Below, piece by piece: positions 3,591 to 59,381 of a stretch of 64,000 nucleotides of DNA. Position 1 is the first letter of the stretch; each line of letters begins with the position of its first letter. Made by a program: the position numbers and the translations under genes. The notes under the pieces were generated by a model, which made no database searches, had not been told where the DNA came from, and worked only from the letters and a program-made list of their open reading frames with translations. This DNA is from Eledone cirrhosa (taxonomy: Eukaryota): the NCBI GenBank assembly GCA_964016885.1, contig CAXHJY010001027.1, positions 1 to 64,000 of the forward strand. Reading direction: 5' to 3'.

Positions 3591-3755
3591 ATAACGAAGG
3601 AATTGTGGTAAGGAACCAGGTGGACCCTAATGCACTAGAGTACTCAATACTTGAGGTAGTAGAGTGGGTAATAGGAAAAGAGTCCGGCCGTTTCGACAGC
3701 TAGGTCTATCGAAAGAGCCGGAGCTCAGCCATTGGGGTCCTGACTCTTTTCCTAT
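3591..3755. mobile_element. Penelope-like/retrozyme-type element in (TA)n, fold-back centred on an HHR-like stem II
   Basis: ataggaaaagagtc...gactcttttcctat inverted arms with axis at gacag-ctaggt-ctatc, followed by GAAA. Related to 18591-18730 and 35270-35341. Confidence 0.6.
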
Positions 3756-5133
3756 ATATATTGTATATCACTAGCCCTCTAACTATCTGTGTCTCTTTCT
3801 CTCTCTCTCTCTCTCTCTCTCTCTCTCTCTCTCTCTCTCTCTCCATCTCTCTATCTATCTCTCTCTCTTTCTCTCTCCATCTCTCTATCTATCTATCTCT
3901 CTATCTATCTCTCTATCTCTCTCTCTCTCTCCATCTCTCTATCTATCTATCTCTCTAGCTCTCTCTCTTTCTCTCTCTCTCTCTCCATCTCTCTCTCTAT
4001 CTATCTCTCTCTCTCTCTCTCCATCTCTCTATCTATCTATCTCTCTATCTCTCTCTCTCTCTCTATCTATCTATCTCTCTATCTCTCTCTCTCTTTAACT
4101 GTGTTCACACCTGGAATTGGATGAGTTCTACCTGGTTTAAGATACCCAAAAGACATACCCATGTGTTAGGACATCAGGGGTTAACCCATTATCATTTAAA
4201 CCGGTTATATCCAGCCAGGTTTCTCTCACCTCTTTCTGTTCATACATATACTAATGTATTCTTTCATACATACATATATACATGTATACATTCATATATA
4301 TATACACACATTTGTATATATATATATATATTCATATACATATGTACATACATATGTACATACATACATACATATATACATACATATATACATTCATATA
4401 TATACACATACATTTGTATATATATATATATATATATATATACAAATGTATGTGTATATATATGAATGTATATATGTATGTATATATGTATGTATGTATA
4501 TATGTATGTACATATGTATGTACATCATCATCATCATGATGATGATGATGATGATGTACATACATATGTACATACATATATACATACATACATACATATA
4601 TACATACATATATACATTCATATATATACACATACATTTGTATATATATATATATATATATATATTCATATATATATGTACATACATATGTACATACATA
4701 TATACATACATACATACATACATACATATATACATACATATATACATTCATATATATACATTCATATACATACGTACATTCATATAGCAACATGCAAACT
4801 CACATACACACACACACACGCAAACAGTCATATATGCACACTTGGACTATGACACAGTCATATATATACACCCCAAAAATACACACACACACATGATCAC
4901 ACACACACACACACACCCACACCACACCCTCACCCTCACTTAAAACCTCCACACCACACCCACACCACACACACCACACCCTCACCCTCACCCTCACCCA
5001 CACCACACACCCCACACACCACACACCCCACACCACACCCTCACCCTCACTTAAAACCTCCACACCCACACCACACACACCACACCCTCACCCACACCAC
5101 ACACCCCACCCTCACCCACACCACACCACACAC

Positions 5134-5182
5134 CTGTATCAACTGGTAGGTAGTTCTGTTGAATCTTTTTCTCATAAATCAA
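5134..5182 (-). CDS. Internal coding exon LIYEKKIQQNYLPVDT(G); an alternative acceptor at 5205 would add GPYIILQ
   Basis: Acceptor aatattacag, donor CAG|gtgtgt. Unique island between microsatellites; phase compatible with exon 23-60. Confidence 0.5.
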
Positions 5183-5312
5183 CTGTAATATTATGTATGG
5201 ACCACCTGACATCTTGATAACAACAACAACAACAACAACAGCGGTGATACTGGTGTTGTTGTTGTTGTTGTTACTGCTATTCGTATTTCATTTGTCATGC
5301 AACTGCAACTAA

Positions 5313-55220: not shown

Positions 55221-58200
55221 ATACATCTATATATATATATACATCATCATCATCATCAGGTTTAGCGTCCGTGTTCCACGCTTGCATGGGTTTGGACGGG
55301 GGTTTTCCCACTTGAGGCAAGAGTGGTTGTCTTGCTCGCATAGGACTGTCTGGCGGGTTTTCTACAGTTGGATGCCCTTCCTAACACCAACCACATTTAC
55401 AGTGTGGGGCTGGGAGGTTTTTACCGTGTTGCCTACACGGCCACATTACAGCGTGGACTGTCTGGCGGGTTTTCTACAGCTGGATGCCCTTCCTAACACC
55501 AACCACATTTATATATATATATATATATATATATATATATATACCCACAAACTCAGACATACACAGACCCGAGTGTGTTTAGCAGTAGTTTTAAAAACTA
55601 TGACAGCAACAGCTCCAATGAACTCGAGATTTATTCAGAGCTGGAAGATATGACAGTCTTTATATTTAGATGACAGCAGCTCTTACTTTCAGATTTGGTT
55701 GTTGTTGTTGTTGTTGCTTTCTTATTCATGTAATTGTGTAGGCATGTGTGTATTTGTGTGTCTGTCTGTCTGTCCGTCTATCTGTCTGTCTGTATGTGTC
55801 TGTATACGTACATACATATATAAGTATATATATATGTGTGTAAATGTATGTTTACACACATATATACATATATATATATATATATATAACGAAGGAAATG
55901 TGGTATATATATATATATATATATATATATATATATATATGTGTTTGTGTCTATGTATGTCTGTGTGGATATATATATATATATATGCACACACGTGTGT
56001 GTCTATGTATGTCTGTGTGTGTGCATATATATATATATATATATATATATAATATGTATACTTTCCTCCACCATCACACCACATCCACCACCACCATCAC
56101 CACAACACTGCCGTGAACAACCATGGAGGTGGTGGTGGTGGTGGCGGTAGTGGTGGCGGTGGTGGTTGCTATTGGTGCTGGTGGTGTGGTGGTGGTGGTG
56201 GTGTTGTTAGTATGGTGGTGTGGTGGTGTGGTGGTGGTGGTGTTGTTAGTATGGTGGTGTGGTGGTGGTGTGGTGGCTGTGACACTGGACCAACCCCTGA
56301 CCAATAATGGTGACAGGTATCCAAGACCTGGTCAACTGGTGGTGTTGTTGGTAGTGGTGGTGTGGTGGTGGTGGTGGTGGTGTGGTGGTGGTGTGGCTGT
56401 GACACTGGACCAATCCCTCACCACTAGTAGTAACAGGTATCCAAGACCTGGTCAACATCATGTGTTGCCAGAGTCACAGGTTTTACTTCTGGAATTATGT
56501 CCAAACAAGAACCAGGGTCGTCACACTCTTTGTGGGCTAACTGCCTCTTTGGGTACCAAACCTGGTATTTCCACCTCCCCAAGCAATGGTCACCCAGACA
56601 TATCATAGAACCAGTGTGTGGGGGGTAGGGTGGCACCCAAACTGGGTATTTGCTGTGGTGGATCTTTTAAACTGCTGAGTCCAACTATTTTAAATTTAGA
56701 TTGTGGTTGGGGGGTGGCATGCGGGTGGCGTGAGGTTTAGAAGGTGTAGAGGTAGTAGTAGTGGTAGTAGTAGTAGTGGTGGTGGTGGTGGTAGTGGCGG
56801 TGGTGGTGGTGGTGGTGGTGGTGGTAGTGATGGTGGTGGTAAACATTTGTGGTTGGGTGTAGTTTATTTTATTTCCTGTTGAGTCTGGTGGTAGTGTTGG
56901 TAGTTGTGATAGTGGTAGTAATGGTGGTGTTGGTAGTAGTAGTAGTGGTGGTGGTGGTACTGGTAGAGTGATAGTGGTGGTGGTTGTAGTGGTGATGGTG
57001 ATAGTAGTAGTGGTGGTGGTAGTAGTGGTGATAGTGGTGGTGGTGGTGGTAGTAGTAGTGGTGGTGGTAGTAGTAGTGATAGTGGTGGTGGTAGTGGTGG
57101 TGATGGTGATAGTAGTAGTAGTGGTGGTGGTAGTAGTAGTGATAGTGGTGGTGGCAGTGGTGGTGATGGTGATAGTAGTAGTGGTTGTGTCTGGTTTTGC
57201 AGGTGGTTGTGGTGGTGGTAGTGGTATGCTGCTGGAAGACAGTTGTCTAGACGGCTGTAGTGGTGTAGGTGGTAGTGGTGGTGGTGTGGGTGTGGAGAGG
57301 AGCGGAGGGCAGGGGGAACATTATAGCAATTGTGATGAAAGATGAGTAATGGTGGATGTGATGATGATGATGATGGCTTCATTTGAGCAGTCATGGTGGA
57401 AGTGGTAGTTTCCTTGGTCTTGGTGATGATGATGATAGTTTCTGTAGCATTAGTGGTGGGGGTGTTGGTGTAAATGGTGGTGGTGGTGGTGTGGTGATGG
57501 AGGTGTGTGTGGTGGTGGTGGTGGTGGTAGTAGTGACAGTGGTGGTGTTGGTGGTGATGGTAGTAGTAGTGGCGGCGGTGGTGGTGGTGTGGTGATGGAG
57601 GTGTGTGTGGTGGTAGTGACAGTGGTGGTGGTGGTGATGGTGGAGGTGTTGGTGGTGATGGTAGTAGTGGCGGCGGTGGTGGTGTGGTGATGGAGGTGTG
57701 TGTGGTGGTGGTGGTGGTGGTGCGTCTGGTGAGGGTGGTGGTGGTAGTAGTGGCGATGGTGGTGTGTCTGGTGGTGTAGTGGTTGTGGTGTGGTGGTGGT
57801 GTGGGAGTTATCACTATTGTGATGTGGTGTTTAGTCAGCGAAACTTATTGTTAGTTCATAATCAGAGAATCAACTTTCAAACATTTATGTGTGTGAATAT
57901 ATGTATAGCAATGTATGTATGTGTGCGTGTGTGTATATATCTATGTATGTGTGTGTGTGTATGTATATATTCATATATATATATATACATGTGTGTGTGT
58001 GAATATATGTATAGCTATGTATGTGTACGTGTGTGTATATATCTATGTATGTGTGTGTATGTATATATTCATATATATATATATATATATATATACATAC
58101 ATGTGTGTGTGTGTGTATATATATGTATATGATATGTTTGTGTATGTATATGCACGTTGGCATCTGTGTACATGCCTACAACTGTGTGTGTGTATATATG

Positions 58201-59236
58201 TTTGTATGTATGTATACGTGTGTGTGCATGAATATCTTTATATGCATACATATATGTATCTGTATAATATATATATATATATTATATATAGCTGAGTGTG
58301 TGTATGTATATATATGTGTATGTCATCATCATCATCGTTTAACGTTCATCTTCCACGCTAGATGTGTGTGTGTGTGTGTATATATGCATGTGTGTGTATA
58401 TATGCATGTGTGTATATATGTATGTGTGTATACATATATATGTGTGTGTATGCATGTGTGTGTGTATATATGCATGTGTGTGTATATATATGTGTGTATA
58501 TATATATATATGTGTGTGTGTGTATATGCATGTGTGTGTATATACATATGTGTATATATATATATATATATATGTATGTGTGTATATATGTGTGTGTGTG
58601 TGTATATATGTGTGTGTGTGTGTGTATATGCATGTGTGTGTGTGTGTATATGCATGTGTGTGTGTATATATGTGTGTATATATATATGTGTGTGTGTGTG
58701 TGTGTGTCTGTCTGTCTTGTGCAAAAGTTTCTATTTAGTACTTACTGAGATTAATTTTTATTGATTTGTGTATTTAAACAGCAATACTGCATATGGAAGC
58801 ATATCCTGTGGTGTTGTTGCTGTTGTTGTGCAGCTGCATGTGTGTGGTGTTGTACCAGCGAGTTAAAGAGCCAGAACACGGCACAGCAGCAGGTGCTTGG
58901 CCAATTAGAAACCTCTGGCCTTTAACCTTGTCTGATCCCGACACTCTTGTTAGGTGTGAAGGTCGTACTCTCTCTTATCTCACTTAAATACTCTGCAGAA
59001 ACCTACTCCATTCCTTTCATACCTGGCACACCAGCTTTTACAGTAGTTAGTCTCTCTCTCTCTCTCTCTCTCTCTCTCTCTCTCTCTCTCTCTCTCTCTC
59101 TCTCTCTCTCTCTCTCTCTATATATATATATATATATATATATATATATAGTAATAATAATAAATTTGAAGACTAAAATCCAAAGAGGGCCCGATAAGGA
59201 TAAATAAATATCAAATATATAAGAACCGTAGAGCAA

Positions 59237-59381
59237 ATATTTATTAAAATAACAGATTAAAGTTTAAGCAAAGAATCGCTGCTTTCACCCTTAACGGGAT
59301 CTTCTGAAGCTCAGAAGATTCCGTTAAGGGTAAAAGCAGCGATTCTTTGCTTAAACTTTAATCTGTTATTTTAATAAATAT
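59237..59381. repeat. 71-bp-arm palindrome (2 mismatches, 3-nt loop) with an HHR-like remnant at the axis
   Basis: The left arm on the minus strand reads CAGAAGA-tCCC(gttaa)GGGt-GAAA. Confidence 0.85.

Follow-up and report, generated by a model that had tools for sequence, protein, structure and literature searches.

Why should fold-back palindromes from several repeat families hinge, again and again, beside a hammerhead ribozyme? The question is raised by positions 1 to 64,000 of contig CAXHJY010001027.1 (assembly GCA_964016885.1, forward strand; the window in what follows), a 64,000-nucleotide, AT-rich (36% GC) and microsatellite-dense stretch of the 3.0-Gb genome of Eledone cirrhosa. An earlier interpretation of its letters (the sequence-only reading) had listed six palindromes, each with its axis immediately 5' of a hairpin-GAAA module or inside the ribozyme core. 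It had suggested that complementary DNA (cDNA) made from the 3' end of the element stalls at the ribozyme, snaps back on stem II and primes itself. Our analysis shows that the six palindromes are real, the one at 3671 only loosely: they are head-to-head stumps of the 3' ends (pseudo-long terminal repeats, pLTRs) of hammerhead-bearing Penelope-like elements (PLEs), and all are embedded in (TA)n. Their hinges likely follow promoter-like motifs and not the ribozyme fold, and their two arms were probably made by twin priming on one RNA from two start sites, with run-off at the RNA 5' end and subsequent joining.

Five families are indeed represented, the copies at 3671 and 18607 sharing one of them (F1) and the others belonging to F2 (9040), F4 (48353), F5 (52959) and F6 (59237). 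Their Penelope-like origin, likewise anticipated from the letters, is borne out by hammerheads, two 3' ends and (TA)n targets and, in F1, F2 and F5, by upstream frames resembling reverse transcriptase (RT) and endonuclease. Read by eye, RT-like and GIY-YIG-like motifs occur in such frames of F1 (loci L047 and L278), F2 (L102) and F5 (L072 and L230); L047 holds a near-complete F1 element upstream of its hammerhead, with both RT and endonuclease frames. Atlas neighbours of the F5 frame, at 0.92–0.94, carried HTH_animal and RVT_1, with GIY-YIG in 11% of one cluster. Pfam scans of the upstream frames gave no meaningful match, a PDB sequence search with the frames returned nothing relevant, and a homolog search with them found a single unnamed protein. 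No RT frame of F4 or F6 was found within the ~1.0–1.3 kb of shared upstream sequence, and what assigns these two families to PLEs is only the fold of the hammerhead, the pair of ends and the (TA)n target. In every family the two 3' ends, hereafter short end and tail end, lie 55–85 nt apart, which together with the hammerhead matches the known anatomy of Penelope-like pLTRs. Membership among the endonuclease-bearing (EN+) PLEs is indicated by the hammerhead within the pLTR, by an RT followed by a GIY-YIG-like frame (F1, F2, F5) and by a one-end tail combined with an inverted 5'-truncated copy (135 of 152 junctions). Palindromic PLE stubs, tails and hammerheads as such are already known. Non-LTR retrozymes were considered and rejected: their tandem units run head to tail with a complete hammerhead in each, whereas the six stumps lie dispersed, are joined head to head and carry incomplete ribozymes.

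Intact copies reaching further upstream exist for every family, and in them a hammerhead does stand upstream of the hairpin, as the sequence-only reading had supposed. Pair counts were computed for F5, where a three-helix hammerhead model was 95% paired over 17 copies, with 8 double-sided changes and compensation seen in stem I, and was equalled by 0 of 500 shuffles; the other families were judged by fold and inspection. The minimum free energy (MFE) fold contains the hammerhead in native F1 and F2 copies and stems I and II in native F4 copies. Native F5 and F6 copies do not take the hammerhead fold at MFE, and fold stability relative to shuffles was not significant (z from +0.26 to −1.45). 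The core is canonical in F2, is accompanied by a long stem-loop II in F4, reads CAGAAGA in F6 and is of the U3-A8 type in F1, whose loop II measures ~35 nt. At L047:4880-4987, this F1 loop II carries a TATA-like box and a likely start site. The F6 core variant (U4 to A), present in most of 22 native copies, is part of a putative hammerhead-like fold (L170:2231-2288), with stem II closed by a U-U pair as in F5. Upstream of the F1 loop II, the canonical core pattern CTGANGA gave 12 matches, which resemble chimeras or chance and were rejected; the native F1 core is the U3-A8 variant further upstream. At G000:C7:7118469-7118518, an F2 hammerhead stem-loop is fused directly to the likely F1 start site, a chimera of the two families that may have arisen by a template jump. 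In the window, where the copies are without their 5' part, an Rfam scan showed no hammerhead family among the best 150 of 409 matches, which were mainly microsatellite and sub-threshold microRNA (miRNA); in the list of open reading frames of the window only repeat-derived frames were seen. Minimal type I hammerheads have been described in PLE pLTRs (Cervera & De la Pena 2014, PMC4209133). As far as the accessible text of that report goes, the Eledone ribozymes share with them an extra base between core and stem II, the U3-A8 core variant (F1) and a short palindromic stem III (F2, F4), and depart from them in the U-U mismatch closing stem II in F5 and F6, the F6 core, the long loop II of F1 and F4 and the likely promoter held in loop II of F1.

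We mapped 152 head-to-head junctions on native references, counting positions from the first core base. The material comprised a random sample of 160 evenly spaced 10-kb stretches of the genome (1.6 Mb), 30 loci for each of the families F4, F5 and F1, retrieved with a query lying 3' of the junction, and, for F2 and F6, 20 short stretches apiece (20/41 and 20/40 listed places); a further 30 F5 loci (L001–L030), found with a query that held the junction, were left out of the F5 counts. Dropped before the 152 were duplicate loci, pairs with neither arm at an element end, a mis-parsed row for the window copy at 18607 and, as repeats had driven their starts, six F5 rows and those F2 rows that lay beyond −600. 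The F2 row of the window was counted, hand-corrected for polarity, overlap and stem II counts. In the random sample, 205 palindromes were called and 150 remained after filtering, F1 (24) and F5 (12) forming the largest clusters.

Along the elements the axes are far from uniform, as predicted: the junctions pile up at family-specific points. The claim that the axis falls at the hairpin-GAAA module or stem II was right as a local pattern, which exceeds chance (a hairpin-GAAA lies ≤40 nt from a random point in 4–9% of cases), and wrong as a general rule, a stem II-centred hairpin fitting 2 of the 152 junctions. Among the 150 random-sample palindromes, a generic hairpin-GAAA descriptor, rough and missing the long loop of F1, found 28 cases with 3-bp stems and 3 with 4-bp stems. 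The most upstream start of F1 lies at +39 to +50 in 55 of 66 junctions, with none above +34, and among 73 tail-bearing rows only the reference itself extends 5' of +29. This F1 wall is the A of YAGTCC in loop II, ~30 nt past the TATA-like box and downstream of the stem II 5' strand; an RNA starting there would hence be devoid of the core and the stem II 5' strand, i.e., of half the ribozyme. For F5, 29 of 31 junctions fall at −8 to +4, at least six non-inverted copies start at −7 to −2 (L222, L223, L226, L233, L246, L247), and 15 natives carry TATA 29–34 nt and CCAAT ~85 nt before −6. In F2, the hammerhead contains none of the 11 random-sample junctions, and 16 of the 20 added copies continue through it; here, arm starts cluster at −70 to −59, directly before CAAGATGGC, a YY1 site that precedes the hammerhead by ~60 nt. 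The same YY1 motif is needed for L1 initiation. TATA, CCAAT and initiator motifs were judged by their general consensus. The F1 and F5 hinges thus mark a 5' wall that is likely the RNA start.

The arms themselves are informative. That the tail sits on one side only, as the sequence-only reading had noted, is confirmed by 135 of the 152 junctions, which pair a short-end arm with a tail-end arm (57 of 68 if only the random sample is counted). The arm reaching further 5' is the short arm in 66 junctions and the tail arm in 33, and both are equal within 2 nt in 36 (p = 0.001); the random sample by itself gives 33 vs 12 (p = 0.002), and in the window copies at 9040 and 18607 the tail arm is again the 5'-shorter one. 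Where the difference exceeds 15 nt, the tail arm is shorter in 38 junctions and the short arm in 15. Ten junctions, seven of them from the random sample, have non-overlapping arms. Of the 38 strongly asymmetric junctions, 13 have a tail arm that stops ≤20 nt from the short site, where 6.6 would be expected (p = 0.009), a pattern known from classical twin priming. In copies that lack a fold-back arm, the end is the short or the tail site alike, and the short ends all lie at TAT/ATAT. The 152 joins divide into 71 with overlap (a number inflated by palindromic overlap), 13 flush and 68 with filler. In the families for which allele mirroring was computed, the two arms match at 246 of 269 polymorphic sites in F1 (132 expected), 72 of 83 in F5 (39 expected), 37 of 45 in F6 (26 expected) and, more weakly, 30 of 43 in F4 (23 expected); rare F1 alleles sit on one arm in 95 cases vs 13 mirrored. 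Mirrored subfamily alleles together with one-arm rare alleles point to one source template followed by decay, and against read chimeras. De novo formation of the palindromes, as claimed before, is supported.

From the family anatomy, the junction maps, the pairing of short and tail ends, polarity, non-overlapping arms, mirrored alleles and motif spacing we infer a twin-priming mechanism, as the simplest account. Both cut target strands would prime RT on one RNA, at its short end and at its tail end. Each cDNA would run toward the RNA 5' end and stop at or before it; the tail-primed cDNA would sometimes halt at the short site and otherwise the second RT would displace the first cDNA, and the two would then be end-joined with overlap or filler. 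In families in which the pLTR promoter probably gives rise to a short RNA, the two cDNAs would end where transcription starts and leave a tight palindrome hinged there, the walls being RNA 5' ends. This start would lie at the hammerhead 5' edge in F5 and probably F6, in loop II in F1, and ~60 nt upstream in F2. As it would adjoin the ribozyme, the latter would be a neighbour of the hinge and not its cause. In agreement with twin priming, the outer ends lie at the priming sites, one template suffices, and a non-overlapping class is present.

A stall of RT at the folded hammerhead, with snap-back on stem II and self-priming, would agree with the mirrored alleles and with the place of the hinges in F1, F5 and some of F6, inside the hammerhead or next to it, and self-priming had been proposed before for PLE junction palindromes. 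The junction map nevertheless largely refutes this snap-back, which we now consider very improbable. The F1 wall lies inside loop II, F2 reads through the hammerhead and the folds are weak; instead of following the ribozyme fold, the hinges of F1, F2 and F5 match promoter-like motifs. A fold-back arm cannot hold a tail that its template lacks, so the tail on the 5'-shorter arm contradicts a snap-back, and some arms do not overlap at all. Folding back would further require the loop-holding arm to be the 3'-longer one, and the opposite is commoner; stem II-centred junctions numbered 2 of 152, with the polarity opposite to that of a loop-bearing arm that is 3'-longest. In vitro, hammerhead mutants left the insertion size unchanged, and an RT moving 3' to 5' should have unwound every helix before reaching the core. 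The main rival to twin priming is a single-strand turn-back with later one-sided deletion: after run-off at the RNA 5' end, a single tail-primed cDNA would turn back or template-jump onto itself, and TA microhomology would attach the copied arm, at its short end, to (TA)n. It explains walls and mirrored alleles equally well, and short ends at TAT/ATAT as well as the 36 junctions symmetric within 2 nt are in line with it. We regard it as unlikely, though by no means negligible, as it needs deletions biased toward the tail arm (38 vs 15 among differences >15 nt) that spare the exact start of the other arm and often stop near the short site, and that site is likewise an end of copies that lack the inverted arm.

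Twin priming might also have met a wall of another kind, be it a 3' splice site, an RNA processing site, a protein footprint or a microhomology hotspot. YAG in the F1, F5 and F6 walls, an F4 wall without promoter motifs and the intron of Drosophila virilis Penelope, which ends at helix I, could be read this way; it seems improbable to us, given that AG is retained in most copies with no common upstream exon attached, that two families have TATA at a spacing of ~30 nt and a third has a YY1 motif, and that junctions do not pile up at the predicted hammerhead cleavage sites 36–45 nt downstream of the F1 and F5 walls. We give hardly any credence to the palindromes being assembly artefacts or units resembling MITEs (miniature inverted-repeat transposable elements) copied whole from few masters. 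The junction type at 53019 does recur in many copies, as retrieved with a query that included the junction. In contrast, members of a family have junctions that differ by single bases, one and the same junction is found together with alleles of different subfamilies, each mirrored in the two arms, and the one-arm mutations of F1 (95 vs 13 mirrored) are not expected from chimeric reads.

Several points weigh against twin priming hinged at transcription starts. The tail-selected F1 and F5 sets have the tail by design, breakpoints are accurate to a few nt, and between subfamilies the references are as much as 4 nt apart. As the pattern that retrieved the 15 F5 natives required TATA, its spacing and not its presence is the test. 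F4 has a hotspot at −37 to −30 (7 of 18 junctions), where no clear promoter motif was seen, and F6 is mixed or weak, with 8 of 19 junctions at −11 to +5, at an initiator-like TTAGTT. The walls contain YAG, which follows a pyrimidine-rich stretch in F5 and could be splice-related. Four F1 junctions close on the native hairpin around GAAA and may reflect true self-priming, and one-sided deletions after insertion could have shortened tail arms. Finally, among contigs of four runs over 52900-53160 no listed piece spans the stretch; the same contigs show other asymmetric junctions, which were not counted and may stem from the assembly's own sample.

In the window, the hinges lie in the core (F2, F5), at the edge of stem I 5' strand and core (F6) and in loop II (both F1 copies and F4). 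Five of the six palindromes are clear where the sequence-only reading had placed them; the one at 3671-3755 is loose, with 14-bp outer arms around the proposed centre, an internally deleted left arm and the true junction at ~3703. There, the minus-strand F1 tail arm (3592-3703; long end at 3592, internal deletion at ~3684) meets a plus-strand short arm (3704-3755) with the end of the stem II 3' strand, GAAA (3711-3714), stem III and the stem I 3' strand, its short end lying inside (TA)n. The other F1 palindrome (18607-18691; arms of 28 bp, spacer of 29 nt) joins a minus-strand short arm (18592-18655), up to the initiator-like TTAGTT (18650-18655) in loop II, to an internally deleted plus-strand tail arm (18656-18728) that is 5'-shorter than its partner. 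The F2 palindrome (9040-9131; arms of 43 bp, spacer of 6 nt) has a minus-strand tail arm (8996-9082), in which the tail (8996-9039) is joined via an internal deletion to the inverted segment 9040-9082, and a plus-strand short arm (9082-9269) without tail, running from core position +5, the end of the native CTGAAGA core, through stem II and GAAA to the short end. At 48353-48616 the real axis is 48456/7, on a native TGATCA (48454-48459) within the long loop II of F4, between a minus-strand tail arm (48279-48456; tail 48279-48352) and a plus-strand short arm (48457-48614) with three 28-bp tandem units, two of them additional. These units (48458-48545) directly right of the hinge have comparable repeats in L105 and L240, which suggests repeated template slippage while joining. 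The axis of the F5 palindrome (52959-53079) is at 53019, within CTGATGA as claimed. Its short arm occupies 52959-53017 on the minus strand, and its plus-strand tail arm (53018-53146) holds the core (53018-53024), stem II, GAAA (53037-53040), stem III and GUA (53054-53056), the stem I 5' strand being gone and the tail extending to 53146. The F6 palindrome (59237-59381; arms of 71 bp, spacer of 3 nt) consists of a minus-strand tail arm (59149-59307; tail 59149-59236) and a plus-strand short arm (59311-59381) with the variant core CAGAAGA (59312-59318), stem II and a mutated GAAA. The F2 and F4 hinges of the window are atypical of their own families. As a control, an older plus-strand F5 copy (52398-52530) shows hammerhead fold and tail, and no fold-back arm was seen in it.

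An inverted-repeat scan of the window returned mostly microsatellites. The longest complex palindrome of the window (27795-28017, 105-bp arms), absent from the earlier list, belongs to an abundant family resembling tRNA-derived short interspersed elements, whose intact copies have a B-box-like GAGTTCAAATCC upstream. Its two arms share one end site, and no hammerhead core was found at the axis, a counter-example to hammerhead hinges. Long microsatellite-unit palindromes lie at 4360-4606 (arms of 70 and 65 bp). Short elements in (TA)n at 6283-6360, 14799-14895 and 41549-41674, with inverted ends starting GGGTGT, look like a MITE family. Hammerhead-core stubs outside palindromes (54716-54739, 17452-17475, 59809-59832, 30296-30327, 29771-29802 and 60158-60189) come from at least two other repeat families.

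EN+ PLE insertions with an inverted pLTR, a junction palindrome and an optional tail have been described, in the accessible parts of two reports, as products of self-priming, possibly on an antisense template, with the tail left by endonuclease resolution (Arkhipova et al. 2013, PMC3846280; Craig et al. 2021, PMC8557442). The Eledone copies are like those in the head-to-head inverted 5'-truncated copy, the one-end tail, the (TA)n target and the 3' hammerhead; unlike those, their junctions point to two priming events and promoter-start hinges, and their tails measure 55–85 nt instead of 30–40. The anole Poseidon PLE was found in vitro to cut and extend both strands, with two RT start sites that bracket the tail and a predicted dimeric enzyme, and insertion proceeded without need for hammerhead cleavage, mutants keeping the insertion size (Frangieh et al. 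2024, PMC11167929). In the accessible text, those start sites are not tied to inverted arms and junctions are unmapped. In L1 twin priming, the other target end primes at an internal site of the same RNA and the cDNAs are joined (Kojima 2010, PMC2912911), as we propose here. From what is accessible of that account, the internal L1 site is variable and the arms barely overlap, whereas in Eledone the site is constant and most arms share sequence up to a common wall, for which strand displacement would be needed. Further background came from accessible parts of PMC2377424, PMC13282606, PMC5381506, PMC3649969 and bioRxiv 2026.07.22.740005. A TATA-less pLTR promoter is documented in D. virilis Penelope, and TATA/Inr (initiator) motifs have been noted in rotifer pLTRs. 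Literature searches, with most subscription papers and supplements outside their reach, found no statement of a stem II rule or of any other tie between PLE junctions and the hammerhead, and no twin priming or start-site hinges for PLEs.

The feature is hence real and of a known class, the stem II mechanism is unsupported, and the alternative is better supported and testable. In the accessible literature, the inverted pLTRs and one-sided tails of PLEs have been explained by self-priming. In the Eledone genome, natural insertion products are numerous; their geometry speaks for twin priming and links the hinge with promoter motifs, and the resulting predictions are sharp enough for the existing in vitro PLE system. 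Such palindromes can be misclassified as MITEs or miRNA hairpins, as the sub-threshold miRNA matches from Rfam illustrate. More tentatively, it is quite possible that the normal way for PLEs to insert is twin priming at a double-strand cut, from two start sites fixed on the RNA and accompanied by strand displacement, and that short non-coding RNAs from the pLTR promoter are the main substrate. If so, every tight palindrome would be a fossil record of its element's transcription start, and with the F1 promoter placed in hammerhead loop II, the ribozyme would form only from read-through RNA and never from the promoter's own RNA.

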